DNA of 64,000 nucleotides from a virus. Where the stretch lies: the IMG/VR virus record IMGVR_UViG_3300009446_000004. One strand, 5' to 3'. The translations under genes were made by a program, and so were the position numbers. Below the pieces are notes generated by a model. It made no database searches, had not been told where the DNA came from, and worked only from the letters and a program-made list of their open reading frames with translations. Of the stretch, positions 2,320-34,208 are shown one piece after another (within the stretch, counting starts at the first letter, position 1; each line of letters opens with the position of its first letter).

Positions 2320-2853
2320 ATGGATGCACGATATGACTTGATATTCAAGCACACATTTAAGGTAGAGAAAGGATTTCAGAACGACCCAGACGATACGGGA
2401 AATTGGTATCATAAGAAGTTGATCGGCACCAAATATGGCATCATTCCTAGTACTTATTTCCGGTACTACAAAAAAAGGCCCACGGTTCAGGACATGCGCT
2501 CCCTGACATTGGATCAGGCTAAGGAAATAACCTATCATCTATTTTACCTTCAATTTGGTTGTGACAAGATCACAGACGACTATGTAGCACATTTGGTTAT
2601 GGATGCAATGTTCAACCACGGAGCGGGCGGCAAAGTCATACAAAGGGCCTGTAATGTACTAGGAGCAAAGCTACAGATAGATAATGCAATAGGACCCAAT
2701 ACACTTAAAGCTACCAATAGAGCCAATCCTGTGAGCTTGTACAATGAAATAAAATCACAGAGGCTAATGTATATGATGACTTTACATAATTGGTGGAAGT
2801 ACAAAAACGGCTGGATTAGGCGTATATGTTCATTCAACTACGGGGCTATTTAG
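2320..2853 (+). CDS. endolysin, glycoside hydrolase family 108 with C-terminal peptidoglycan-binding domain
   Basis: EKGFQNDPDDTGN...GTKYGI catalytic motif; MDAMFNHG, LQIDNAIGPNTL and GWIRR are typical of GH108 + PG_binding_3. Confidence 0.9.
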   Translation: MDARYDLIFKHTFKVEKGFQNDPDDTGNWYHKKLIGTKYGIIPSTYFRYYKKRPTVQDMRSLTLDQAKEITYHLFYLQFGCDKITDDYVAHLVMDAMFNHGAGGKVIQRACNVLGAKLQIDNAIGPNTLKATNRANPVSLYNEIKSQRLMYMMTLHNWWKYKNGWIRRICSFNYGAI

Positions 2854-3233
2854 CAGGGCCCAAAATTCAGATCATCCTTTATGTTGTTCATGTATTCCCA
2901 CAAAACGGTACCAATATTATCAAAAAATTGTCGCTGTGGAGCACAATATATATAAGGACTAGCTAGGTCCATTTCTTCCAGCAAGGAAACGACAATTTGA
3001 TAATCCTCTTCAATGATTACCTTTTCAAACACAATTGGAGTTCCTTTGTATGTGGCCCATCCCGCAAAATCCCTAGCATTGGATTCTGGAATGCCGAATA
3101 TCTTGGTAAGCAAATAGGCTGATTTTTCATCAATCACAAGCCTATCTATTTTGAAATATGGTTCAAGCGAAAGGTCCCTGCCACCTGAACACGGGGCATG
3201 ATGATCGGTAATATCTCTTTTAAATCTACTCAT
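2850..3233 (-). CDS. hypothetical protein (last gene of the FtsK operon)
   Basis: 127-aa ORF overlapping the upstream gene by 4 bp. Confidence 0.6.
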   Translation of the reverse strand: MSRFKRDITDHHAPCSGGRDLSLEPYFKIDRLVIDEKSAYLLTKIFGIPESNARDFAGWATYKGTPIVFEKVIIEEDYQIVVSLLEEMDLASPYIYCAPQRQFFDNIGTVLWEYMNNIKDDLNFGPC

Positions 3234-3469
3234 GATTTCAGTTCATTTTGTCGTCCTTTTTTGTAAATATAACCTAGCCCAATAATCAAAATCGGAACCA
3301 GCAGCACGGGATTCAATGTCGTTTCTGCGATCTTGTTAGCAGCCTCCAGTATCTCAGAGATTAGCCATATCGATGAGCAAACGCAAAGCCCTAGTGTAAA
3401 TATTGCGGCGACCATTACCAATTCCCTTTGGTCCTCCTCCTCTGTGATATTTGTTACCTTTTTTTTCAT
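3230..3469 (-). CDS. small two-TM membrane protein
   Basis: Likely start ATG 3469 (ATGA overlap with the upstream stop). Two hydrophobic runs: LVMVAAIFTLGLCVCSSIWLI and VLLVPILIIGLGYIY. Confidence 0.6.
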   Translation of the reverse strand: MKKKVTNITEEEDQRELVMVAAIFTLGLCVCSSIWLISEILEAANKIAETTLNPVLLVPILIIGLGYIYKKGRQNELKS

Positions 3470-3861
3470 AGTCCGTATTTGTACATCAAAAGCGATGTGA
3501 TTAATAAAATGATTTCCAACCCTATATCCAATACCACCAAAACAATCATCCATAACACAACCAGAAGATGAGAAAAAAGGGGCAATCTGCGCCATTCTGT
3601 GCGACCTGAGCCCCTCGCCTTTATCTGTAATCGTTTGGTCCCTCTTAGCAATCTCTGCTCCTCTTGGTATGCGTGGCATATCCTGATGGAGAATATTATC
3701 TTGACATTGCCGTCCTGATTCCCGTCAGTTGCTTTGTCCACGGCTTCCCTTCTTTTTTCAAGCTTGTTATCGGTCCACCCGATCTTATAAGCTGCTATCC
3801 TATTCTTGTCTTTCAATAGGTAGATCACAGTCTTTTTAGCGAACGGGTTAAAGTTGATCAC
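3466..3861 (-). CDS. GIY-YIG / T5orf172-like domain protein with C-terminal TM helix
   Basis: VIYLL...AYKIGWT...R and a terminal TEW motif, followed by a hydrophobic tail. Confidence 0.65.
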   Translation of the reverse strand: MINFNPFAKKTVIYLLKDKNRIAAYKIGWTDNKLEKRREAVDKATDGNQDGNVKIIFSIRICHAYQEEQRLLRGTKRLQIKARGSGRTEWRRLPLFSHLLVVLWMIVLVVLDIGLEIILLITSLLMYKYGL

Positions 3862-5257
3862 CTGTTGATTCGTTTTGTTGCTGGTATTCTTTGACTGCTT
3901 CGTAAATTCTTTGCGCCCTGGTAGCTCCTATCTTTACCCAGGTGGATTCCGGACCCACTCTCAGTCCTTGTTCCCTCATGAATTGCTTTTGCATCTTGCC
4001 ACCGTTTTCTATATGCTCTAATCCATGGCGCAAATACCGATCCTCTTTAGATTCTGACTTTTTGATTATTGGTGCCATGTGCTCGCGGTCTTTCAAAATT
4101 GTGGACGGTCCAGGGAATCTATCGGACATATCGAAAATGTAATCTACCAACTCAGATTCCGAGATAAAAGCCGATTGTGCGCGGTAGGTCACACCACCAT
4201 CCATAACAATCATATCGCCTTTATCAAGCAGATTGTGCGCGTTTGTTTCTGCTCCTAGTATTGCGCTGGAATCATGGGCTGAGGCAACGCGGAGGCATAT
4301 CTTCATTGGTAACTGGCTCTTTAACTCAACCGATAACACTTTGCTACTAGGTCGCTGTGTGGTGATAATAAGGCGTATTCCGGCTGATCTGGCTTTACGG
4401 CTTAATACCTGGCACATATCAATAAAATCGCCTTGTCGGTCTCCCATCGACGCCACAAGATCAGAAAATTCATCAAAGATAGCCACGATATGAAATCTGC
4501 TTTTTAGCATTTCGTTTTCCTGATCATTTTTGCCATCCAATGGTAGGTCCTCTATTTCTTTGCAGTGGAAGTGCTTTAGTACTTGGTACCTGTGACGCAT
4601 CTCTCCTACTAGCCTACGGATTGCCTCGAAAGCATCTAAAGGGTTTGTTATGATCGGATCAACTCCGGACTTCAGCGCCATCATAAAACAGGGCAACCCA
4701 TTCCACCGGGTAAACTGGTTTCCCTTGGGATCAAAGAATAGTATTTTGGTCCATTCTGGAGATCTTGAGCGAGTTAATCCAACCATAACAGAATCCAATA
4801 CAACCGACTTTCCGGATCCAGTTATTCCGGCTATCACAGCATGAGCGGACAGATTCAATATCAGCGGTTTCTTATCTGCCTGTAGTCCTAGGAAAACGGG
4901 ACACGGCATCGGTCGTCCTCCCATCATTGGCAACGTATCTGGAAACTCACCAAAGTACACCATTTGCCGATCTCTGGTTGGTACCATGATTCCAATGCGG
5001 TCATTGTCCTGCTCTTGGCCTATGTACTGAACTCCAGAAACCCCAAGCGAGACCCCAATATCTGATATTTTTCTTTTTACGTCTGAGGCCGTTTGCCCTT
5101 CCAGCAGATCAAAGTAGTAGATAGTGGCGTTTGGTCCATTTATGATCCGTAATTTATTGCCCCACTTGATCCCGTGGGTATTCAGTGCTGGATAAAAGTC
5201 AGATATCAGATCTTGGTTTGTTCTGGTTCGCTTTCTGCTAGTTGCTTGCTTAAACAC
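3848..5257 (-). CDS. FtsK/SpoIIIE-family DNA translocase ATPase (motor only, no N-terminal TM domain)
   Basis: Walker A AGITGSGKS, FFDPK, Walker B IVAIFDEFSDL, RKARSAGIRLIITTQRPS, LLDKGDMI; the C-terminal KIGATRAQRIYE resembles the gamma winged helix. Confidence 0.9.
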   Translation of the reverse strand: MFKQATSRKRTRTNQDLISDFYPALNTHGIKWGNKLRIINGPNATIYYFDLLEGQTASDVKRKISDIGVSLGVSGVQYIGQEQDNDRIGIMVPTRDRQMVYFGEFPDTLPMMGGRPMPCPVFLGLQADKKPLILNLSAHAVIAGITGSGKSVVLDSVMVGLTRSRSPEWTKILFFDPKGNQFTRWNGLPCFMMALKSGVDPIITNPLDAFEAIRRLVGEMRHRYQVLKHFHCKEIEDLPLDGKNDQENEMLKSRFHIVAIFDEFSDLVASMGDRQGDFIDMCQVLSRKARSAGIRLIITTQRPSSKVLSVELKSQLPMKICLRVASAHDSSAILGAETNAHNLLDKGDMIVMDGGVTYRAQSAFISESELVDYIFDMSDRFPGPSTILKDREHMAPIIKKSESKEDRYLRHGLEHIENGGKMQKQFMREQGLRVGPESTWVKIGATRAQRIYEAVKEYQQQNESTGDQL

Positions 5258-5317
5258 TTGTTTGTTTATTTTAATAACTCATTGAAATTTCCACATAGTT
5301 GATCCTGTTAAGACCCT

Positions 5318-5341
5318 TCGGACGGGCGGACGAAACGGACG
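5318..5341 (+). repeat. three CGGACG direct repeats in the intergenic region upstream of the FtsK gene
   Basis: TTCGGACGGGCGGACGAAACGGACG; copies at 5319, 5327 and 5336. Confidence 0.7.
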
Positions 5342-5391
5342 AACTACGGTATAGTGAGCTCGTTGATTTTTTAGGGTCGGTTTTTCGTCTG

Positions 5392-6129
5392 TTACCTGAA
5401 AATCTGTTTCCCCATCAAATAGCAAACAATATCAAGCAAGGATACCAAGAAGAAACCAAAATAGGCTAGCATCCCAGGGTTAAGATGAATCATCTTTTTT
5501 GCTCTGTCGAAGTGCATCCCTGACAGGGAGACATTTTCATGTGTGTTACCCATCAACCAGGTGAATAGTCTGCCCTTATGGTGATCTATTGCAAAATCAG
5601 TCAAGCTATCCCTATTGTTTGGCGTCTTTCCTTCTGCGAGTATATAATCAAAATCATCAGGGCCATTCTCTTTCATTAATTTGAAATTGGTGTAGTCCCG
5701 TTCATCGTGCTTGGTTGCATTCTCAAAATGAAACTTAGCTTGATGCCAGTTCTTATCCTTGTAATGTATTCCAACTCCGTGTTTATTCCTCAGTGTAGCA
5801 AACGGGAGTTCCTGGCCTGTTCTGGCTTTCTTCAAAAGCATATGATACACAAAAAATAAAGATCCAAGCAGCATCCAAAATGTAGCCCAAAACCAAAACC
5901 CATACCAAAAGCAAACTATTGTAACTATCAGACAGATAAATGATTTTAGTTGAGTCGTCGCAAACCTGTATAGCATTTTGATAACAAACGGCGAGGCAAC
6001 ACCTAGCATGAAATCAACTTGAGTCCATAGTAATAGCGCGACGGTCTTGAACCAATCGGAGTTCTTTTTCTTTTTTCTTTTACTCCCCATCATCTGTCTT
6101 TTTGAAGTTTTCCGAGGCAATATGTACAA
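5392..6129 (-). CDS. multi-pass membrane protein with a soluble central domain
   Basis: Basic N-terminus (KRKKKK), 2-3 hydrophobic helices, a soluble region and a C-terminal TM helix. Confidence 0.7.
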   Translation of the reverse strand: MYILPRKTSKRQMMGSKRKKKKNSDWFKTVALLLWTQVDFMLGVASPFVIKMLYRFATTQLKSFICLIVTIVCFWYGFWFWATFWMLLGSLFFVYHMLLKKARTGQELPFATLRNKHGVGIHYKDKNWHQAKFHFENATKHDERDYTNFKLMKENGPDDFDYILAEGKTPNNRDSLTDFAIDHHKGRLFTWLMGNTHENVSLSGMHFDRAKKMIHLNPGMLAYFGFFLVSLLDIVCYLMGKQIFR

Positions 6130-11946: not shown

Positions 11947-12576
11947 ATGAGACAAAAATTCAAACAAGGTGATACGATAGAAGCCCTTAAAAAGGCTTTT
12001 GAAGAGGCCGCCACCCCTATTGTCAAAACCTGTATAGGCATTTTGATCAAGATCAAAAACGGTGAAACAATTGGCAGTTCAGGAACAGAGGATGTATCAG
12101 GATACAAGGTATTCACCAGGTATCAAAAATTTGGGCTAGATGGTATCAAGGATTTGCCTGTTACTTGGATCCCGCTTGATCAGAGATTTGATCCTAAACA
12201 TACCGTGAGCTTCTTTTTGAATCTTGAGCAAAAAGAAAAAGACCTCTTCAAGAAGTTGAAGATTCGCGCTCTTAGAATGGTCAGACAGGGCGCCAGCTGG
12301 GAAGAAATTAATGATACTATCAATGGCGCGTTTTCGGCTAGATACGTTTACGATCGGTACATGGCTTCAGGATTGGATGCGGTATTGAATCCAGTCAGAA
12401 AAAAAGTCACCAGAAACAAGTTAAGCGATCAGCAAGAGAAAAGCCTGGCTGATAAGTTTGGCAAGCAAACACAAAGGGCGTCTATTGTTAGGGACTACAT
12501 TATGAGTGAATACAAAATTCAATATTCAGATACTGGAGTTAGAGCCTTGATGAGACGCTTGAAGATTCAATTCTAA
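11947..12576 (+). CDS. HTH protein resembling the IS630 transposase DNA-binding region, no DDE domain
   Basis: RALRMVRQGASWEEI...YDRYMASGLDAV...KLSDQQEK...YKIQYSDTGVRALMRRL. Confidence 0.55.
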   Translation: MRQKFKQGDTIEALKKAFEEAATPIVKTCIGILIKIKNGETIGSSGTEDVSGYKVFTRYQKFGLDGIKDLPVTWIPLDQRFDPKHTVSFFLNLEQKEKDLFKKLKIRALRMVRQGASWEEINDTINGAFSARYVYDRYMASGLDAVLNPVRKKVTRNKLSDQQEKSLADKFGKQTQRASIVRDYIMSEYKIQYSDTGVRALMRRLKIQF

Positions 12577-13199
12577 TGGCAGTCTTTAACACCGCTAACC
12601 GATTTGATCCAGCCGATGCAAAATGGGTACGCAAAGCATCAATGGAACGTCCTGTGATATGCTGTGATACTGAAACTACGTGCTTTAACAGAAGGAGTGG
12701 AAAGGTGATTCAATTGGCCGTGTTGAAGTGGTTCTCAAGCGATAAACCCATTTATTCAGGTGCTACATACTTGAACAATCAAGGTGTCCCAATATCTGAA
12801 GGCGCCAAGAAAGTACACGGTATTGATTGCAGCATGATCAATGAAGCGAAAACGTTTGATCAGATAGCAGAGAGATTGTTTCGGTTTCTTAATGGATGTA
12901 TCATTACTGGTTGGAACGTAAAGGCTTTTGACGTCCCATTTCTTCAGTCAGAGTTTGACAGGATAGGGGTGAAGTGGGAACCGAAATTGATATTTGATGG
13001 ATTACTTTTTGAGCGCAAAAAGAACAAAGGCAAGTTGATCCAAGGGCAGAAGATTTGTAATAAGCTTGGATCTACTTACAAGCGGTACACAGGTAACGAA
13101 ATAGAAAACGCTCACGACGCTAAAGCAGATACGGAAGCGACCTGGGAGATCATTAGTAAATACCAACTAAAACTAAAAATCCCGACCAGCGAGAACTGA
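12576..13199 (+). CDS. DEDDh 3'-5' exonuclease (DnaQ / Pol III epsilon-like)
   Basis: CCDTETT, VHGI, GWNVKAFDVPFL and NAHDAKADT (ExoI-III motifs). Confidence 0.9.
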   Translation: MAVFNTANRFDPADAKWVRKASMERPVICCDTETTCFNRRSGKVIQLAVLKWFSSDKPIYSGATYLNNQGVPISEGAKKVHGIDCSMINEAKTFDQIAERLFRFLNGCIITGWNVKAFDVPFLQSEFDRIGVKWEPKLIFDGLLFERKKNKGKLIQGQKICNKLGSTYKRYTGNEIENAHDAKADTEATWEIISKYQLKLKIPTSEN

Positions 13200-16601: not shown

Positions 16602-17705
16602 ATGAAACTAACAATACACTCAGGCACCCTTCTAAGCAACCTGCAAATTGCAGCCGCTGCGATAAGCAGTAACACAATCATTCCAATTCTCCAAAACTTC
16701 CTTTTCACCGTAAAGGGGGATGAATTAGAAATCAGAACTTCCGATTTGGAAACAATGATTTTGGTAAACATTCATGTCACAGCAGAAACAGACGGAAGCT
16801 ACGCGGTGCCTTCTAAAATCCTAATTGACTTTTTGAAAACACTGAGGGACGAGCCCATCACCATTGAGGTTTTGGAGAATGGGCAAATGGAGATCAAAGG
16901 AGGGGGGAGAGGTAAGTATAAATTCATGACCGAATCAGCAGAAGAATTCCCAGCAAAAGAAGATGTTCCGGAAACAAAAACAAAGATCCCAGGAGAACAG
17001 CTTTTGCAAATGATCAAATGGGGAGAATCAGCGGTCAGCAATGACGAGCTAAGGCCTCAGATGACGGGGTATTATTTTGACTTTCATTCCAACAGTTTGA
17101 ATTTAGTTTCAACCGACGCTCACACATTGGTTCAATCAGTAGTTAAAGGCAATGACTTGGATGCTAATTTCATAGTTCCTCAAAAGGCTATGAACTTCCT
17201 AAAAAACACTATTGAAAACGATTTAAAATCTGAGGTTGAAATCAGCTGGGGCGAAAAAAGAGTTTTCTTCAAATGCGGTGAAGTCTCAATTGATTCACGT
17301 TTGATCGTTGGGACTTATCCAGATTACAACACAGTGATCCCGTCGAACAATCCTAACACTTTACACGTGGATACTGAAGATCTAATTGCTGCGATAAAAA
17401 GGGTAATGCTGTTCGCCTCCAAATCCACCTTTCAGATCATTCTCAATATTGCAGCAGAGAAGATTTCCCTTTTAGCACAGGATTTGGATTACTCAAATGA
17501 GGCTCAGGAAGAAATGGCTTGCGAATACGAGGGTGAAGAAATTCAAATTGCATTCAATGCTAAGTATCTAATGGCCTGTTTTAAAGCACTTGGAACCACT
17601 CAGGCCAGAATCACCATGTCCCATCCTGCTAGAGCTGCTTTGATTTTTCCTGTAGATGGGGGAGATGTGAAGTTTTTGATAATGCCTTTAATGATAAATG
17701 TTTAG
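16602..17705 (+). CDS. dnaN: DNA polymerase III beta sliding clamp
   Basis: 367 aa. IPILQNF, SDLE, EEFP, RPQMTG, VSTDAHTL, SRLIVGTYPDY, IAFNAKYL and terminal FLIMPL motifs. Confidence 0.95.
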   Translation: MKLTIHSGTLLSNLQIAAAAISSNTIIPILQNFLFTVKGDELEIRTSDLETMILVNIHVTAETDGSYAVPSKILIDFLKTLRDEPITIEVLENGQMEIKGGGRGKYKFMTESAEEFPAKEDVPETKTKIPGEQLLQMIKWGESAVSNDELRPQMTGYYFDFHSNSLNLVSTDAHTLVQSVVKGNDLDANFIVPQKAMNFLKNTIENDLKSEVEISWGEKRVFFKCGEVSIDSRLIVGTYPDYNTVIPSNNPNTLHVDTEDLIAAIKRVMLFASKSTFQIILNIAAEKISLLAQDLDYSNEAQEEMACEYEGEEIQIAFNAKYLMACFKALGTTQARITMSHPARAALIFPVDGGDVKFLIMPLMINV

Positions 17706-19639: not shown

Positions 19640-21514
19640 TTGGAAACACCACTAAAACAAATCAAGGCGGATATACGGTTGGAGGCTTCTGGAAGGACTC
19701 AGAAATTTACAACTAAATGCCCATTTTGTAACGATACAAGAAAGAAGCACCCGAACCAAAAATGCTTCACAATTTGGCCCATTGAAGAAACCTATAATTG
19801 TAACCACTGTCATCAAAAAGGTAACTTTAAAATACATGAGGACAATCCCTGGGATTTACCCAAAAGAGTAGGGACATTGAAGCCAGTAGAACCACTATAT
19901 AAAAGAATGGCAGAACGCGGAATTGATAGGGATACAGTGGATCATTTTAAGATGACTTGGCAAAAGGAATGGAAAAACAGAAAAGGTGATACGGTACCTG
20001 CTACTGCTGTATATAATTTCTTCGAGGGCAATACTTTGATGAAGCAAAAATTCAAAGGCTACCAAAAAGACGGAGAGAAAATCATGTGGTCATCCTCCAA
20101 CAGCAAACACATTTTCTACGGACAGCAACACATGCCTACCGAGGAAGGGCATTTGATAATAACTGAGGGGGAGGATGATGCTATGTCATGGAGGCAATGC
20201 GGTGTAAGGGTCCCGGCGTGGTCGGTAGATAACGGTTCTTCATTAAAGAAGATTGGCAAAAAACTAGAATGCTTTGACAACATAAGTCGATTATTCCAAG
20301 CAGATGAAGAGGGGGAATACAAGATCACAAAGGTGTATATTTCTACAGATGATGATCCTGCTGGTTTGGTTCTAAAACAAGAACTCATAAGGCGCCTAAG
20401 GATTTGGCGCTGTTACATCATCGAATACCCTGAAGGGTGCAAAGATGCAAACGAGGTGCTACACCCAAAGGGGCCATTAGCAGGAAAGACAAAAAAAGAA
20501 AGGGAAAAGATACTACGTCAATGTTTCCTAGACGCTAGACCAGCACCGAGTCCTGACGTTCAGTATTTGGAAAACGAAATATGGGATGATATACTCAATG
20601 ATCATAGGCATGGATTAGAGACCGGAATATCTACAGGATCAGACCTGTTAGACCAAGTGCACCTTCACAGTCCAAATGGTAGTTTTGAAATATGGACCGG
20701 AATCCCTGAACACGGGAAAGGTGAATTTTTGCGATGGGTTGCAATGATGGCCGCTGTAAAGCACGACTGGAAATCAGGGTGGTATGTTCCTGAAGATATG
20801 CCGTCAAAGAATTTTTACAGAAAGCTAAGCGAGACTTATATAGGCAAGCCATTTGATAACCAGAAGCAGGATAAATACCCAGCCATGACAGAAAGCGAGC
20901 TCATCGCTGGAATGACATTTGTCAAAAATCATTTCTTTACAACACAACCGGAAAAAAACAAAAAACAACGACGAATGCCTACGCTCAAATGGGTAATTGA
21001 GGTGATGGAATGGCTAGTACTAAAAGAAGGGATAAGGATGTTTGTTATCGATCCATTCAACGGGCTTGATGCAAATTTCAAGATATCGCCAAATATAGCG
21101 GACAGGATGCAAAAAGACCTGACAGAAATGGAATACCAGGCTATGGAATTAGGTGTCAAGTTAGTTGTGGTAATGCACCCTAACAAAATGGAATACATGT
21201 CAAAAACGAGCAGCGAATTAAAAATGCCAGGACGGTATCATGTTGCAGGTGGGGCAATGCCTGTAAATAAATGCCACACAATGGCGGTGGTACACAGGGA
21301 GACAGATGAAGGCACTGACGAACTCAGCAACATTGCGCTTTTCCGATCGCTGAAGCAAAAGAACCAGGGAATAATGACAACAACGGGGCAAAGGGCTTTT
21401 GAGTTTGTGCCACACAAAAGACGATACATACACGCTGAAACCCAGGGTGACCCATTGGCTAATTGTTTGGCTAATATCGAAACAGAAATTGAAGATCAGG
21501 ATATACCGTTTTGA
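19640..21514 (+). CDS. bifunctional primase-helicase (T7 gp4 / Twinkle-like)
   Basis: Zinc finger CPFC...CNHC; TOPRIM IITEGEDD...STDDDPAG...KDANEVL; helicase TGIPEHGK, FVIDPF, VVMHP. Confidence 0.9.
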   Translation: METPLKQIKADIRLEASGRTQKFTTKCPFCNDTRKKHPNQKCFTIWPIEETYNCNHCHQKGNFKIHEDNPWDLPKRVGTLKPVEPLYKRMAERGIDRDTVDHFKMTWQKEWKNRKGDTVPATAVYNFFEGNTLMKQKFKGYQKDGEKIMWSSSNSKHIFYGQQHMPTEEGHLIITEGEDDAMSWRQCGVRVPAWSVDNGSSLKKIGKKLECFDNISRLFQADEEGEYKITKVYISTDDDPAGLVLKQELIRRLRIWRCYIIEYPEGCKDANEVLHPKGPLAGKTKKEREKILRQCFLDARPAPSPDVQYLENEIWDDILNDHRHGLETGISTGSDLLDQVHLHSPNGSFEIWTGIPEHGKGEFLRWVAMMAAVKHDWKSGWYVPEDMPSKNFYRKLSETYIGKPFDNQKQDKYPAMTESELIAGMTFVKNHFFTTQPEKNKKQRRMPTLKWVIEVMEWLVLKEGIRMFVIDPFNGLDANFKISPNIADRMQKDLTEMEYQAMELGVKLVVVMHPNKMEYMSKTSSELKMPGRYHVAGGAMPVNKCHTMAVVHRETDEGTDELSNIALFRSLKQKNQGIMTTTGQRAFEFVPHKRRYIHAETQGDPLANCLANIETEIEDQDIPF

Positions 21515-21560
21515 TAATTGGCAGAAATAAAGTAAATTCATAAAAAGCAAAAAGGCACCG

Positions 21561-23132
21561 ATGATTTGGACTCCCAGACCCTACCAAAAGAAATTTAAGA
21601 CTGATATTTATCAAGCCCTGCGACAGCATAACGGAGTGATGGGTCAAATGCCCACAGGCGGCGGCAAGACCATTGTAATGAGTGATATCTGTTACGATGC
21701 CCACAGAGCTAATAGGCCAGTATTGATCATCGCACATCGAAAAGAATTGATAACACAGGCACAAGATAAGATATCAAAGGCAGCTGGAATTGATACGGGG
21801 ATCATCATGGGAGACCATAGAATGAACTTAGATATACCTATCCAAGTTTGCAGCATTCAGACAATCAACAGCAGGCTGAACAAAATGGCTGATTACTTGA
21901 CTAGGTTTAAGTTGGTCATTGTTGATGAGGCCCACCATATCAAGGCAAGCACGTACATGAGCACCATTGATGCCTGTACAAATGCTAAAGTATTGGGCCT
22001 TACTGCCACACCTTGGAGGTCTTCAGGCGAAGGGTTTAAGGAGATCACTCAAACAATGATACAAGGCCCTAGCGTTAAATGGTTGGAGGCAAACGGCTAC
22101 TTAGTTCCTGCTAGAAAATTTCAGGTGCCTTTGGATCCAGAGGAAATGAAGGGATGGAGGGTCTACGGTGAAAAATACCGCGACGCCGATATGATGGAAT
22201 TAATGGGCCGGGATGACATCATGTCAGACATAGTGGGTAGTTGGAAGTTACACGCACAAGGCAGACAAACAGTAACCTTTGCCGTTAATATTGCACATAG
22301 CAAGAAGATTGTGGAGATGTATCAGGACCACGGTATATCAGCGGCCCATTTGGACGGCAACACAAACAAGTACGACAGGGACAAGATACTAATCGGACTA
22401 GAGAACGGAAAAGTGACTGTGTTATCTAATTGTGGCATAGTAGGTGAAGGTGTTGATGTTCCTGTTTTAGGAGTTGTCCAAATTGCTAGGCCAGTTTTTT
22501 CACTTGCCTTATTTTTACAAATGTGCGGTAGAGGTAGCAGAACGGCAAAAGGGAAAGAGGACTATATCTTGCTAGATCATGGAAATAATTTGATCACTCA
22601 TGGGTTCCCCAATAGAGATCACAAGTGGACCATCGAGGATAGAAAAAAACGCAAAAAAAACGAAATCGAAGTTGATGAAGATGGTCAAATATTAGAGGTC
22701 AAATTACAGGACGAGCAGGGCCGATTGTTTGATCCTGTAAAGTTTAAAGAATCAATCCCAGGGATGACACTCGTGGAGGTAACAAGAGACCACAGCGAAA
22801 TGGTGATTAAGAAGATAGCAAGGGAGATAAGGGAAAAGAATTGGAAACCCTACAGCATATGGCATCAGTTCAAAGACTGGTTGATAGAAAAAGAAGACAG
22901 CAGAGATCCTACAACTAAGGAATTAAAATTGGTTGAAGCGGAAATAAACAAGGGATTGCCAGCAGAGAATAAGATAAAACAACGTTGGCGGTCACACCGT
23001 ATATCAGAAATGCAAGACATACGCAACGGAGTTAAGCCAAAATCACACAGCAATAAAATTGTACTAGATGGAATCAGAAAGGGCATACGATCGAGAAGCA
23101 ATAGCAGCAGCTATCAAGGCAAAAGATATTGA
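21561..23132 (+). CDS. superfamily II DEAD/DEAH helicase
   Basis: MPTGGGKT, VDEAHH, GLTATP, GEGVDVP, QMCGRGSR. Confidence 0.9.
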   Translation: MIWTPRPYQKKFKTDIYQALRQHNGVMGQMPTGGGKTIVMSDICYDAHRANRPVLIIAHRKELITQAQDKISKAAGIDTGIIMGDHRMNLDIPIQVCSIQTINSRLNKMADYLTRFKLVIVDEAHHIKASTYMSTIDACTNAKVLGLTATPWRSSGEGFKEITQTMIQGPSVKWLEANGYLVPARKFQVPLDPEEMKGWRVYGEKYRDADMMELMGRDDIMSDIVGSWKLHAQGRQTVTFAVNIAHSKKIVEMYQDHGISAAHLDGNTNKYDRDKILIGLENGKVTVLSNCGIVGEGVDVPVLGVVQIARPVFSLALFLQMCGRGSRTAKGKEDYILLDHGNNLITHGFPNRDHKWTIEDRKKRKKNEIEVDEDGQILEVKLQDEQGRLFDPVKFKESIPGMTLVEVTRDHSEMVIKKIAREIREKNWKPYSIWHQFKDWLIEKEDSRDPTTKELKLVEAEINKGLPAENKIKQRWRSHRISEMQDIRNGVKPKSHSNKIVLDGIRKGIRSRSNSSSYQGKRY

Positions 23133-27756: not shown

Positions 27757-27810
27757 ATCAAAGTCGATCGAATTCACGATAAAGGATTGGGCTCTTTTAT
27801 TGCCTACTCG

Positions 27811-27852
27811 TTTTGTAGTCTCAGACATTTGCTTTATATTTACGGCATATTA
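27811..27852 (+). promoter_or_regulatory. conserved phage promoter copy driving the SNF2 / GNAT-MTase operon
   Basis: TTTTGTAGTCTCAGACATTTGCTTTATATTTACGGCATATTA matches the copies at 2229 and 8149. Confidence 0.75.
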
Positions 27853-27874
27853 CAAGACGACAAAAGCAAATGAT

Positions 27875-28120
27875 ATGAAAATCGATTTAGGCAACAAACA
27901 AGAAGTAAGAGATGTTATTTTGTCTTATTTGGCAGGCAATGCCAGAAAAGAAGACACAGGCACAGCATATGAAAATGATTTAGGTGTGTTGCCGATATGT
28001 GATGTTTATGAGATGTGGGATCAACTATCTTTTGATTATGCATTGAAACTATCTGAAGCATCAGGTCATAATTACCTATATGACAATGTTGGGTTCATTA
28101 TTGCAATTGAGTTTGAATGA
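27875..28120 (+). CDS. small acidic hypothetical protein
   Basis: Likely start ATG 27875 after the promoter. Confidence 0.55.
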   Translation: MKIDLGNKQEVRDVILSYLAGNARKEDTGTAYENDLGVLPICDVYEMWDQLSFDYALKLSEASGHNYLYDNVGFIIAIEFE

Positions 28121-29595
28121 GAATCCCACGAATCAAATTAACAATAGATAGGCTTATCCACGAAGCGGACAAAGCCTATCTATTCTACCGTAAAGGGAAA
28201 GAGTTTTGGGTGCCTAAGTCAATGTGCGAGATCTTAGGTGGCGGCAATACTCCTAAGAAGTTTTTCAAAGTATTGCTTCACCCTCGAAAGTTCCAAGAAC
28301 AAACAGGTGTGATTCCTCAAGCATTGGATACTTTTAAAATGGCAGTGGCTAATAGCGCCTATGATTTAGATAATCACCCAATACGAGAGTTAAAAGGGTA
28401 TGCGTTATTTCCTAAGCAAAAAACAACAATCGAAAAGGTGTACAGGTTGAAGTATTGTGCTTTGATCTGCGAAATGAGAACCGGAAAAACAGTTATGAGC
28501 CTTACAATTGCTAATAGTAGGCTAAAAGCTGGATTGATTGACAGAATTATTGTAATCGCTCCACTAAGAGCAAAAATTGCTTGGCAGGATTATGATATTC
28601 CTTTTGAGTTTTACCCTATTGAGCACTTTTCAAACATTCACACTAGGGTTAAGATTCAGCTTAATTGTGATACAAAAACAATGGTGATTCTGGATGAATC
28701 ACACAAAATCAAGAATGATAAGGTTAAACGCCAGGAGCTTATCATAAACGAAACCATTACTGCTGGCTTCAAAATGATACTTACTGGAACCCCAATAGGT
28801 AAACATGCTGGAGACTTGTTTTATCAATTTGCTTTTCTATCCAAGGATATACTAAGATTCAACAGCTATTCAGATTTTAGCGAGAGCCATCTATTGTATG
28901 GCGGCAGAGACGGTAGCAAGGTAGTAGCCTATGCAAATATCGAAGAGATAGCCGAAAAGATAAGCCCTTATGTGGCTTTGTTGAACAGGTCTGATCTTTG
29001 GGACGAAAAGTTAAAGATTAAAAAGGTCTTCGTATTCAAGTTGAGTTGTTACAAGGATTATAAGGAGCAAGTTGATGAGATGCGCGATTTAGTAACAGAA
29101 AACAAAACAGTCCACGTATTGGGCGCAATGGTAAAACTACAGCAGATGGCAAGTAATGATGCGAATAGGATCGAAAAGCTAAAAGAGATGCTTGATGACC
29201 GACCTACAGTGATCTACTATAAGTTTGAAAAGGAAGGTGAAGTCATTGACCAATTAGAGATACCACGATTGAGCGGCAAGACTTCCAATATGGATTTTGC
29301 TGTGATATTGAATGATTTCAATTATGGAGCAATTAAAAGAATCGCAATCCAGCAGAGCATCAGTCAAGGATTTAGCTTGAAAAAAGCCAGTCGATTAATC
29401 TATTACTCTACCACTTTTAATCTATTGGATAGAGCTCAAAGCGAAGAGAGGGCATCAGAAAACAGAGAAGAAATAGAAGTTGCTGACATAGTTGCAGAAG
29501 GCACTATTGATGAACGGATTCAAGATGTATTAAATTTGAAAACCACGATAGTTAAAGCATTCAAAGATGAGACTAAATCCAGAAGTGGACGTTAA
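28117..29595 (+). CDS. SNF2-family helicase/ATPase
   Basis: CEMRTGKT, VILDESHKIKN, ILTGTPI, LQQMAS, QGFSL, DRAQSEER, TIDERI. Confidence 0.85.
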   Translation: MRIPRIKLTIDRLIHEADKAYLFYRKGKEFWVPKSMCEILGGGNTPKKFFKVLLHPRKFQEQTGVIPQALDTFKMAVANSAYDLDNHPIRELKGYALFPKQKTTIEKVYRLKYCALICEMRTGKTVMSLTIANSRLKAGLIDRIIVIAPLRAKIAWQDYDIPFEFYPIEHFSNIHTRVKIQLNCDTKTMVILDESHKIKNDKVKRQELIINETITAGFKMILTGTPIGKHAGDLFYQFAFLSKDILRFNSYSDFSESHLLYGGRDGSKVVAYANIEEIAEKISPYVALLNRSDLWDEKLKIKKVFVFKLSCYKDYKEQVDEMRDLVTENKTVHVLGAMVKLQQMASNDANRIEKLKEMLDDRPTVIYYKFEKEGEVIDQLEIPRLSGKTSNMDFAVILNDFNYGAIKRIAIQQSISQGFSLKKASRLIYYSTTFNLLDRAQSEERASENREEIEVADIVAEGTIDERIQDVLNLKTTIVKAFKDETKSRSGR

Positions 29596-30994
29596 GAACG
29601 TAATCACCCAGAAAGAGCAAAATAAAAGATTAAGCGGCATAAAAGGGAAAGTGGAGTTTATCCCATTAGCTAAGGCCATAGGGACCGAGTGGGAGGAATC
29701 AATTAAAGAACTTGCGATAAAAGATGTCTTTGCAAAAAGAGCATCGAGAGCAAAGTTCCTGCGTAAGAATGCATTAGTTGTAACAGTTGATGGACAGTTT
29801 GCTGCATTTAGTATTTTCGAGAGCGACAGCAAAGCACAGCAATTCTATCAATGGCAAATTGGGATCGACGCCCCATATAAGGGGAAAGGATTAGCTAAAG
29901 TAATTGTGAACGAAACATTGAGCAGGAACGTAAACAATTATCCAGCTGTAGTTTCTGTTTTCAATAAAAATGAAATCAGTTTAGGGCTATTCCAGAGCTG
30001 CGGTTTTGAAGTATATAGGAAAACCGGAGGGCTTTACAGATTAACCAGAGGCGGAATAGTCGATGGAAAGGAGGTCACAGCTTCTAGCGTTGGAAGAGTA
30101 AAAGCACTGATTGGCATTAATCCAACGAACCTATGGAATAGCGCAAAAGGAGATTGGAGGCAAGCAAAAGCGGCATGGAATGAACTGATCGAGACTGCTG
30201 GAACAATGGCAGATGTCGATAATCCTACATATGCAAGTCGTGAAGGATGCTGGCAAAAAGATGGAGGCTTGGCAGCATTTGCTACAGGAAAGGCATTGAA
30301 TGATGGGGCTTCAGTGCTAGACCCGTTTGTTTGCGAATTATTATGCAAGCTATTCATGCCAAAGAACGGGAACAGAATCTACAATCCATTTGGCGGAGGT
30401 GTTCAAATGGGATTCATTGCTGGGACATTACAGCACGATTATGTGGGTAGTGAGATTAGGCAAAATCAATGTGATGCCAATAATGCCATTTGTCAGGCAA
30501 TGGATCTTCCGGCAAAATGGATTAAAAGCGACAGCTCGACTTATGAGCCAGAAGGAATGTTTGACATGATTTTCAGCTGTCCTCCTTATTACAAAGTAGA
30601 AAAATACATCGATTACGAGGGAGTGATTCCAGAGGGCGAATTGAATGATCTGGATACTTATGAAGAGTTTCGAGACATGCTATTTCAAGGCTACAAAAAA
30701 GCTATTGCAGTATTGAATGACAACCGATTCTTTTGTGTTATGGTAGGAGACTCAAGAGATTCAAAAGGCGCTTACTATTGCTGCGAGGCGGAAACAATCC
30801 TTTTCCTTAGAGAGCAAGGGCTTCATGTGTACAATAAAATCGTTTATATGGAAACTCAATTTACAAGAGCAATGCAGGTGCCTAAGACAATCAGGACCCG
30901 AAAGCTCCCTAAGACAGAGCAAAAGATTATCATTGCTTACAAAGGGAACTTGAAGAACATCAAAGCAGAATTTGAGGACTTTGGCAGGATATAG
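29567..30994 (+). CDS. GNAT acetyltransferase - amino DNA methyltransferase fusion
   Basis: N-terminal GNAT (QIGIDAPYKGKGLA...N...LFQSCGF); C-terminal MTase (SVLDPFVCEL, YNPFGGG, GSEIR, DMIFSCPPYY). Confidence 0.8.
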   Translation: MRLNPEVDVKNVITQKEQNKRLSGIKGKVEFIPLAKAIGTEWEESIKELAIKDVFAKRASRAKFLRKNALVVTVDGQFAAFSIFESDSKAQQFYQWQIGIDAPYKGKGLAKVIVNETLSRNVNNYPAVVSVFNKNEISLGLFQSCGFEVYRKTGGLYRLTRGGIVDGKEVTASSVGRVKALIGINPTNLWNSAKGDWRQAKAAWNELIETAGTMADVDNPTYASREGCWQKDGGLAAFATGKALNDGASVLDPFVCELLCKLFMPKNGNRIYNPFGGGVQMGFIAGTLQHDYVGSEIRQNQCDANNAICQAMDLPAKWIKSDSSTYEPEGMFDMIFSCPPYYKVEKYIDYEGVIPEGELNDLDTYEEFRDMLFQGYKKAIAVLNDNRFFCVMVGDSRDSKGAYYCCEAETILFLREQGLHVYNKIVYMETQFTRAMQVPKTIRTRKLPKTEQKIIIAYKGNLKNIKAEFEDFGRI

Positions 30995-31145: not shown

Positions 31146-31646
31146 GTGATTTTTATGGCAAAATCTAGGATAGACAACTTAGGAGTAAATAAAGGATCTA
31201 ATGGTTTAGATAAGAACCCAGCAAACATAAACAGGAAAGGGCCATTAAGAATACCTAGCATTAACAATGCCGTCAAAACTGTTGCTGGTGGCAATGGGGT
31301 GATATTTATAGGCAATAATCTGATCACAGAGAGGACAGGGGATGGCGTTTACATACAACTAGCAAGCGATGAGGCGTTGGCTGTAAAGATGTTTCAAATA
31401 GCACTAGAAGGCAATGACAGAGATTCTTTAAGGGCTATAGCGAAGATCAAAGAAAGCCTAGAAAGTGAAACATTGCCAACTACGCCTGTTAATAACACTA
31501 TAGAGATAGGCGTAAATTCATCTACTATAGAAAGGATCGAAGCACTAAAAGAGATACGTAAAAAAATAAATGCAGACATCAGAAGACTACAATCAGCAGT
31601 CCGAATGGATAATGCAGACTCAAATAGCAAGCCAAGCAAAAAGTAA
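31146..31646 (+). CDS. terminase small subunit (probable)
   Basis: GLDKNPANINRKGP N-terminal motif; lies directly upstream of TerL. Confidence 0.65.
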   Translation: MIFMAKSRIDNLGVNKGSNGLDKNPANINRKGPLRIPSINNAVKTVAGGNGVIFIGNNLITERTGDGVYIQLASDEALAVKMFQIALEGNDRDSLRAIAKIKESLESETLPTTPVNNTIEIGVNSSTIERIEALKEIRKKINADIRRLQSAVRMDNADSNSKPSKK

Positions 31647-33839: not shown

Positions 33840-33912
33840 GCGATCGTAGCTCAGTTGGTAGAGCATCTCCCTTTTAAGGAGAGGGTCCAGGGTTCGAGCC
33901 CCTGCGATTGTA
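33840..33912 (+). tRNA. tRNA-Lys(TTT)
   Basis: GCGATCG/CGATTGT acceptor, GCTC/GAGC D-stem, TCTCC-CTTTTAA-GGAGA anticodon arm, CAGGG-TTCGAGC-CCCTG T-arm; CCA not encoded. Confidence 0.93.
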
Positions 33913-33920
33913 CAAATGAA

Positions 33921-34005
33921 GATCAGGCAAGGGAATAGCTGAAATCAGGCGCTTTGATTGCTATGTTAAAGAGGCTAAGTTGCCAGCCTTTCTATCTGTC
34001 TGATC
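33921..34005 (+). ncRNA. unidentified structured RNA (three-way junction)
   Basis: 9-bp closing stem GATCAGGCA/TGTCTGATC with two internal hairpins (ATAGC..AATCA/TGATT..GCTAT; AGGCT/AGCCT). Confidence 0.4.
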
Positions 34006-34010
34006 AATTT

Positions 34011-34099
34011 TCCAGAGTTCCAAGGAAAGGGCTTGGGGTGTATCGATAGGTACATTGAGTAAAACAAAACTCACGCGGGGGCGGATCCCGCATCTGGAG
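34011..34099 (+). ncRNA. non-canonical tRNA-like cloverleaf with a long variable arm
   Basis: TCCAGA/TCTGGA closing stem plus four hairpins in tRNA order; T-like loop GGCGGAT and an 8-nt anticodon-position loop. Confidence 0.5.
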
Positions 34100-34106
34100 C
34101 AAATTC

Positions 34107-34190
34107 GGTAGGATACCAAAGCGGTCAAATGGACTAGACTGTAAATCTAGTGGCTCCGGCCTTCGGCGGGTTCGAATCCCTCTCCTACCA
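34107..34190 (+). tRNA. tRNA-Tyr(GTA)
   Basis: GGTAGGA/TCCTACC acceptor, CTAGA-CTGTAAA-TCTAG anticodon arm, long variable loop, TTCGAAT T-loop. Confidence 0.93.
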
Positions 34191-34208
34191 CTCACATAAT
34201 AAATCACT

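Follow-up and report, generated by a model that had tools for sequence, protein, structure and literature searches.

A phage gene pair joining an SNF2-family ATPase to a GNAT-methyltransferase fusion: a candidate DNA methylation dyad with an accessory acyl-CoA module

Modifications of phage DNA determine whether restriction and other defenses succeed, and new enzymology and tools have in the past come from them. DarB of phage P1 is the archetype of dyads that link a methylase to an SWI2/SNF2 ATPase, a well-recognized anti-restriction theme in phages and conjugative elements (PMC5512222); DarB-type dyads have been proposed to use ATP to modify incoming or own DNA as a guard against restriction (Iyer et al. 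2017, PMC5512222). Phage methylases with a variable N-terminal module are another known kind and include the ParB-N6_N4 methylase fusions of Listeria phage B054 (gp77), Pseudomonas phage ZRG1 (WID42107), Fusobacterium phage Funu2, and Mycobacterium phage Vincenzo (gp1). Mom of phage Mu is a GNAT-fold enzyme that makes N6-carbamoylmethyl-adenine (PMC7261163). Here we analyze a gene pair that is a novel variation on the first two kinds: in a 64,000-nucleotide (nt) stretch of DNA from an uncultured tailed phage, IMG/VR record IMGVR_UViG_3300009446_000004 (the whole of which we call the window), the gene for an SNF2-family ATPase overlaps that for a fusion of a GNAT-fold domain to an amino-methyltransferase whose catalytic motif reads CPPY. 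Our literature searches found no paper describing a GNAT-CPPY-methylase fusion or its pairing with SNF2 or radical S-adenosylmethionine (SAM) proteins. With moderate confidence, we interpret the cassette as an ATP-driven DNA methylation dyad for anti-restriction that carries an accessory acyl-coenzyme A (acyl-CoA) module.

An earlier note on this DNA, made without database searches, had proposed that one open reading frame (ORF) of 475 amino acids (aa) joins a GNAT fold to an amino-methyltransferase and is coupled to an SNF2 ATPase. Both domains are borne out by sequence and by a structure model, and the upstream ORF does encode an SNF2 ATPase, as judged by its Pfam and PHROG matches and its intact motifs. 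The coupling of the two is borne out as well, their gene overlap being conserved in relatives. The two genes are co-directional and have 29 nt in common; together they form a compact, two-gene cassette of ~2.9 kb (28117-30994) with the following features:

28117..29595, + strand: SNF2-family ATPase gene (492 aa, P0001), encoding a small N-terminal domain (aa 1 to ~90) and a two-lobe helicase-like core
28474..28491, + strand: SNF2 motif I (Walker A), MRTGKT, aa 120-125; R121, G123, K124, and T125 are invariant in 33 orthologues
28693..28704, + strand: SNF2 motif II (DExH), DESH, aa 193-196; D193, E194, S195, and H196 are invariant in 33 orthologues
29567..29595, + strand: overlap of the SNF2 and GNAT-methylase genes, 29 nt (translational coupling)
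29567..30994, + strand: GNAT-methyltransferase fusion gene (475 aa, P0002)
29648..30061, + strand: GNAT-fold domain, aa 28-165, from structure match and PF00583
29876..29899, + strand: GNAT motif A, acyl-CoA pyrophosphate loop YKGKGLAK, aa 104-111 (K105-x-x-G108-x-A110)
30104..30976, + strand: class I amino-methyltransferase core, aa ~180-470; motif order X-I-II-III-IV, gamma-like
30383..30400, + strand: motif I (SAM binding), NPFGGG, aa 273-278; invariant in 83 homologues
30578..30589, + strand: motif IV (catalytic), CPPY, aa 338-341; Cys where D/N/S is usual; invariant in all homologues

The fusion protein has >2,278 homologues, all of them metagenomic; the best 120 show 47 to 65% identity over 84 to 100% (mostly ≥93%) of its length. 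We scored 80 IMG/VR loci with three profiles, built on the fusion protein, the N-terminal extension seen in the ~735-aa forms, and the SNF2 protein. The extension has a radical SAM fold, its best match being spore photoproduct lyase (SPL; Z 12.0) and nearly all other top matches being radical SAM proteins. This domain is fused to the GNAT-like/methylase protein in ~40 of the 80 loci and is encoded by an overlapping gene directly upstream or downstream in ~30; at another 6 loci the 3' end is overlapped by a radical SAM gene of the canonical PF04055 type, akin to PA0069/Rv2578c (SplB-like). All radical-SAM-type loci lack SNF2, and all lack the CoA-loop glycines in the GNAT-like domain. Only the window, L001, L004, L005, L087, and the P0014 contig combine an SNF2 gene directly upstream, no radical SAM, and a K-G-x-G-L-A-K loop, and the correlation between an SNF2 partner and an intact CoA loop is perfect among the sampled loci. 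The window thus represents a rarer SNF2 type, most homologues being of the radical-SAM type; neither domain profiles nor tblastn found a radical SAM gene in the 64-kb window.

Directly upstream placement of SNF2 with a gene overlap holds in all six SNF2-type loci (the window, L001, L004/L190, L005/L188, L087, and the P0014 contig) and in two variants without GNAT, L103 and L189; the overlap is 4 to 11 nt in L001, L087, L103, and the P0014 contig. The SNF2 and GNAT-methylase genes are the sole genes within 6 to 8 kb that the window has in common with L001 or L005, and on the P0014 contig the pair is surrounded by tail genes. At least 13 of the ~55 SNF2 orthologues lie on contigs equal in size to those bearing GNAT-methylase homologues, and no CPPY methylase was found near other SNF2 proteins at 76 IMG/VR loci. 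The gene pair is therefore a self-contained, horizontally mobile two-gene cassette whose members are obligately paired. Longer fused forms (833 to 2,375 aa, such as SNF2-GNAT-methylase in a single chain) were not found, which is weak evidence only.

The SNF2 protein matches PF00176 (39 bits; cut-off, 24.9), ResIII (24.9 bits), and phrog_62 (E = 1.1e-59), and helicase motifs I, II, III, and VI together with the Pfam domain place it in the SWI2/SNF2 family: MRTGKT, DESH, TGTP, and QSEERA are conserved across the 33 orthologues. The ~55 orthologues are 38 to 48% identical to it, and the next relatives drop to ≤31%. A complex prediction for the SNF2 and GNAT-methylase proteins from their own alignments scored 0.00, which is no verdict and counts neither for nor against their interaction.

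Two SNF2-linked relatives do without a GNAT domain. In L189 (IMGVR_UViG_3300020180_000045, positions 3001-5440), an SNF2 orthologue (41% identity) is directly followed by a 305-aa CPPY ORF that is methylase only, with no N-terminal domain. In L103, from a cultured Bacteroidota strain (Riemerella columbipharyngis DSM 24015, NZ_FNAS01000028.1, positions 2738-5921), an SNF2 orthologue (39%) overlaps the gene for a 546-aa protein whose C-terminal 300 aa are 58% identical to the window methylase core and whose N-terminal 240 aa are unrelated to GNAT. A GNAT identity for these 240 aa was tried and rejected (hhalign to the GNAT profile, probability 0.1); they have a weak LPG_synthase_C match (E = 0.011). 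The L103 pair is flanked by a gene for an 889-aa HTH/HNH protein and by a weak LPD38-like ORF. In a maximum-likelihood tree built on the methylase core with the ParB types as root, L189 and L103 branch off beneath the node joining all forms with GNAT (support, 0.998), and the radical-SAM type is a derived clade (0.989) with the window's clade as its sister. Because these two SNF2-linked relatives lack GNAT, SNF2 and methylase appear to be the core unit and GNAT an added module. The simplest history is that an SNF2-methylase dyad gained GNAT, giving the window state, and that one lineage then swapped SNF2 for radical SAM and remodeled the CoA loop; identities between the window and the radical-SAM type of 29% in the GNAT domain and 60% in the methylase core fit this history.

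We modeled the window fusion protein with AlphaFold 2 (AF2) from 42 homologues (predicted local distance difference test score, 84.9; predicted template modeling score, 0.81). Residues 28 to 163 of the model align with the N-terminal acetyltransferases Naa30 (7l1k; VIA-align Z 14.3; root mean square deviation [rmsd], 2.1; 130 residues aligned) and Ard1 (4r3k; Z 13.9). PF00583 is borderline on the window protein (20.6 bits, E = 5.5e-4; cut-off, 20.7) and clear on the 65%-identical homologue P0003 (36.8 bits). The GNAT assignment made in the earlier note is upheld. Searching the Protein Data Bank with sequence profiles gave weak matches only, to EctA (E = 0.008) and to the TTHA0409 methylase (E = 0.03). 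The pyrophosphate loop typical of GNATs (Q/R-x-x-G-x-G/A) is present with Lys at the first position; K105, G106, L109, and K111 are invariant in 29 SNF2-type homologues and G108 nearly so. Since this acyl-CoA pyrophosphate loop is intact, GNAT catalysis is plausible. The motif-B general-acid Tyr that is usual in GNATs is replaced by Phe (F142). In the α1-α2 acceptor region, L49, A50, D53, A56, A59, and R61 are invariant in both family types.

The radical-SAM-linked modules, of which UFOVP154_8 is an example, contain the same two domains (47 to 53% identity overall to the window protein), with the same fold and inter-domain packing, but instead of SNF2 they have an SPL-like radical SAM enzyme, either fused or encoded by an overlapping gene. 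A model of one such homologue from BFVD superposes on the window model over 469 columns (template modeling score, 0.85; rmsd, 2.8). Because this independent model superposes over both domains, the fusion is predicted to be a rigid two-domain unit with conserved packing between its halves. The radical SAM partners themselves (L002, L006-L083) are of two kinds: a divergent one, which has an invariant C-x11-C-x3-C and a C-terminal CxxCxxxC, is missed by Pfam, and is fused or adjacent; and the canonical PF04055 kind. Locus L044 (3761-5871) has the GNAT-like/methylase gene in two tandem copies, the second cut by the contig end, and in L002 a C5 cytosine methylase gene (PF00145, 10281-11189) lies directly downstream of the three-domain radical SAM-GNAT-like-methylase gene. 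An analogy to Elp3, which also combines radical SAM and GNAT, was considered and rejected: the window lacks a radical SAM gene, so at best it fits the radical-SAM type, whose members lack the CoA loop, and Elp3 did not rank among the best fold matches for the radical SAM domain of those relatives.

The C-terminal core matches PF01555 (28.2 bits; cut-off, 26.7), phrog_12517 (E = 4.6e-43), phrog_498 (E = 1.1e-39), and PADLOC MTase_II (38.7 bits). The PF01555 match spans only profile positions 2 to 108 of 221 because the motif order differs from that of the beta class. NPFGGG and CPPY, which the earlier note had recognized, are located at the positions given above, and E296 and D322 are conserved as well. 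The AF2 model of the core has a class I Rossmann fold with an FxGxG motif I (Z 18.3 to 14 against many class I methylases); the best matches are Trm11 (5e72; Z 18.3), TrmN (3tma; 17.3), and Trm14 (17.1), with generic methylases at ~15. These three enzymes resemble the window core in motif order (X-I-...-IV) and catalytic loop (xPPY), but they carry a THUMP RNA-binding domain and D/NPP(Y/H), and are only 10 to 16% identical to that core, whose context suggests DNA. The Cys of motif IV aligns with the Ser of SPPY in TTHA0409; Cys at the Ser position of N4-cytosine methylases may be a weak hint of a cytosine target.

Among 50,697 records of isolated phages, matches to the fusion protein are confined to aa ~182 to 472, and the GNAT form is absent. 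The matching proteins include the ParB-methylases: as the earlier note had stated, many related phage methyltransferases do carry a ParB N-terminal domain, among them those of ZRG1, B054, Funu2, and mycobacteriophages. Their core is homologous to the window's (26 to 36% identity over aa ~182 to 470; 32% for the window core against ParB-methylases), with the same motif order and S/T-C-P-P-Y motif IV (SCPPY is common to both), and in B054, Funu2, and ZRG1 the gene stands just before the terminase gene, as in the window. They differ in that the window protein has GNAT in place of the ParB/CTPase-fold domain, plus an SNF2 partner; no ParB match was found in the window fusion protein, whose N terminus is GNAT. 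The methylase core is sister to the phage ParB-methylase fusions, and because those relatives have the same motif IV, its Cys is a trait of a larger phage clade and not peculiar to the window gene.

The likeness to DarB is one of organization: in both, a mobile element couples an amino-methylase functionally to an SNF2 ATPase, in the window by overlapping genes. DarB-type methylases, however, belong to the EcoKI/TaqI family, with NPP(Y/F) and an N-terminal LPD36 domain, and precede the helicase, to which they are fused, in giant virion proteins, whereas the window enzyme is of the CPPY, ParB-methylase-related clade, bears GNAT, and is encoded by a separate gene downstream of a small SNF2, so that the order of the two is reversed. 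We read the window dyad as sharing the DarB logic while falling outside the DarB type, as an independent lineage. As for Mom, it likewise has a phage GNAT fold in a DNA-modification and anti-restriction setting, but it is a solo domain without methylase or SNF2 partner and has no detectable sequence relation to the window protein. The earlier note had drawn on Mom as a comparison, but no Mom family appeared among Pfam and PHROG matches at E ≤ 1, although a very remote kinship inside the GNAT superfamily may exist.

A sister clade of CPPY methylases may point to chemistry other than methylation. In Croceibacter phage P2559S (gp66-gp67, L084:2494-4135) and Pseudomonas phage ZRG1 (L003:3512-5357), the gene for the CPPY methylase is translationally coupled to an overlapping AdoMet decarboxylase gene downstream (PF02675, 70 and 83 bits). 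The P2559S enzyme has been proven experimentally to be a true AdoMet decarboxylase, in a report that leaves the neighboring gene unmentioned (PMC9992855). A CPPY methylase ORF lies within the 3-kb flank in 73 of 80 decarboxylase loci from IMG/VR (L108-L187), and nearly all of these ORFs end at the decarboxylase start. Every aligned motif I of the decarboxylase-linked methylases reads F-(A/S)-G-D, whereas the window protein, B054, Funu2, and all GNAT forms have Gly-Gly. The Asp is like that of the GGGDG loop of spermidine synthases, where an Asp within that glycine-rich segment forms a hydrogen bond to the aminopropyl amine of decarboxylated SAM (PMC6514230), which suggests that the decarboxylase-linked clade transfers aminopropyl groups, possibly to DNA. 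As motif I of the window protein has Gly-Gly in place of this Asp form, its core is expected to bind ordinary SAM.

The gene pair is embedded in a long co-directional array that runs from replication genes to the large terminase gene, as is evident at its 5' end:

27800..28120, + strand: small upstream ORF, its stop overlapping the SNF2 start (ATGA); matched to no family

An early promoter for the pair, as had been proposed, is not supported: in addition to this overlap, sigma-70-like sites are not enriched at the locus (13 found against 14.8 expected from shuffles), and a promoter pattern scan found no Bacteroidota-type −33/−7 match nearby. Megablast of the locus against the 50,697 phage records gave no match, and Pfam and PHROG scans of neighboring window ORFs found no further base-modification genes. 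Between the methylase and large terminase genes, an ORF of 166 aa (31146-31646) overlaps the terminase start and has no Pfam or PHROG match; judged from its position, it may encode the small terminase. The replication module (12576-13199, 16602-17705, and 19640-23132) carries genes for an exonuclease resembling RNase T, a full-length beta sliding clamp of DNA polymerase III, a primase-helicase, and a further helicase of the SF2 type; since this module already has its own helicases, the SNF2 protein beside the methylase is an extra motor.

Several lines of evidence favor a role in DNA modification, the setting that the earlier note had assumed. The substrate of the methylase core is probably DNA because of its SCPPY kinship to the ParB-methylases, its Pfam and PADLOC matches to DNA methylases, the partners of the family (a double-stranded DNA [dsDNA] motor or, in relatives, SPL-like radical SAM enzymes), and the position of the gene right before the terminase gene. 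If the cassette is an ATP-driven DNA methylation dyad, the SNF2 protein would be a dsDNA-dependent ATPase that tracks along or distorts phage DNA and acts with the downstream protein, whose C-terminal core would bind SAM, flip a base into the CPPY pocket, and methylate its exocyclic amino group (N6 of adenine or N4 of cytosine). As the gene lies at the junction of replication and terminase genes, modification would be timed after replication and before packaging, and the modified genome would be shielded from host restriction, as proposed for DarB-type methylase-SNF2 dyads. The GNAT domain would be a later addition, packed rigidly on the methylase core, accessory and dispensable for the core reaction. 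Its most likely role would be in handling the same nucleic acid substrate; it might place an acyl group as a second mark on some sites, or link activity to acetyl-CoA.

Other observations weigh against this interpretation. The closest fold matches of the core are tRNA N2-methylguanosine (m2G) methylases (Trm11, TrmN, and Trm14) and not DNA methylases, and genes for tRNA-Lys and tRNA-Tyr lie at 33840-34191, 3 kb downstream of the cassette. The residue before PP(Y/F/W) in motif IV is Cys, not the D/N/S of amino-methylases, for which it is unusual. Our literature search found no characterized member of the CPPY clade, and we infer both methyl transfer and a DNA target. In the methylase tree, the basal placement of the two forms without GNAT, and the order of their branches, is weakly supported (0.29). 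Finally, the GNAT-like domain has a mean identity of 62% within the radical-SAM type and is thus constrained despite its lost CoA loop, which suggests that it is more than accessory.

The strongest rival, which we consider possible though doubtful, is an obligatory two-step, composite base hypermodification, in which the GNAT and SAM-dependent domains act in turn on one flipped base and SNF2 gives ATP-driven access to it; one domain might, for instance, install or alter an amino group that the GNAT domain then acylates. TmcA and NAT10 are helicase-coupled GNAT enzymes that make N4-acetylcytidine in RNA, and the window system would be their DNA counterpart. The intact CoA loop of the 29 SNF2-type homologues, the rigid packing of GNAT on the methylase domain, and acceptor-region residues that are invariant in both family types all favor such a pathway, as do the recruitment of radical SAM chemistry by the other branch of the family and the apparent use of decarboxylated SAM in the sister clade, which would make the CPPY clade prone to non-methyl chemistry. 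But the general-acid Tyr is Phe, motif I is of the ordinary SAM type, similarity to Mom is lacking, and SNF2-linked relatives have either no GNAT or an unrelated N terminus. The earlier note had suggested a two-step base modification by the fusion; while the DNA-modification context and the intact CoA loop that favor it stand, L189 and L103 do without GNAT, and since GNAT is thus not required for the core reaction, an obligatory two-step pathway is disfavored. In a broader version that we hold just as tentatively, the CPPY clade would be a phage toolkit for adding to DNA bases SAM-derived groups in place of methyl or besides it, and the window enzyme would make a composite acyl-plus-alkyl mark powered by SNF2, analogous to the helicase-coupled N4-acetylcytidine GNATs; the window type would then be a bridge from the plain SNF2-methylase dyad to the radical-SAM-linked family.

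It is somewhat less probable, and on balance unlikely, that the fusion is a bivalent weapon, whose methylase half acts on DNA while its GNAT half separately acetylates a protein (host RNA polymerase, a defense factor, or the SNF2 partner). Protein acetylation has been suggested for the GNAT domains of phage polyvalent proteins (PMC5512222, PMC7824862) and for phiKMV Rac, and GNAT, methylase, and SNF2 domains co-occur repeatedly in polyvalent anti-host proteins (PMC5512222, PMC7824862). The top structural matches of the window domain, Naa30 and Ard1, are protein N-terminal acetyltransferases, but its nearest sequence matches are small-molecule amine acetylases (EctA) and not RimI-type enzymes. 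Moreover, the inter-domain geometry is fixed, and the GNAT-like domain is strongly constrained without its CoA-loop glycines in thousands of radical-SAM-type relatives, which is not easily reconciled with a protein acetylase acting independently.

We think it improbable that the enzyme acts on RNA, for instance on host or phage tRNA as a Trm11/TrmN-like m2G methylase with an added GNAT. The fold matches (Z 17 to 18 for Trm11, TrmN, and Trm14 versus ~15 for other methylases) and the tRNA genes of this phage agree with such a target, and Bacillota GNAT-methylase fusions annotated as rRNA/tRNA methylases give a lead (score, 0.80), though no more than that. However, the fusion protein has neither THUMP nor another RNA-binding domain, the matching sequence models are DNA methylases, the sister clade has ParB domains, and the family is partnered by a dsDNA motor or by SPL-like radical SAM enzymes. 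Least credible of all is incidental adjacency, in which SNF2 would be an ordinary replication or recombination helicase that lies beside the methylase gene by chance: although the locus is at the end of the replication module and phrog_62 bears the plain label "DNA helicase," two other helicase genes of the phage lie at 19640-21514 and 21561-23132, overlap and adjacency are kept in unrelated genomic backgrounds including a tail-gene module, and this SNF2 subfamily was seen only with CPPY methylases, no orthologue of >40% identity having been found without an adjoining one.

The GNAT-methylase family comprises several thousand metagenomic phage proteins and has no member from a cultured phage. 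The partners of the CPPY clade (an SNF2 motor, two kinds of radical SAM protein, ParB domains, and AdoMet decarboxylase) indicate that more than one chemistry has been built on a single methylase-like core, and only in the window form does an intact acyl-CoA loop occur together with an ATP-driven motor. As a compact two-gene unit of ~2.9 kb, the cassette is directly testable in E. coli. Even if it carries out DNA methylation only, it would still represent a second, independent lineage of methylase-SNF2 anti-restriction dyads.

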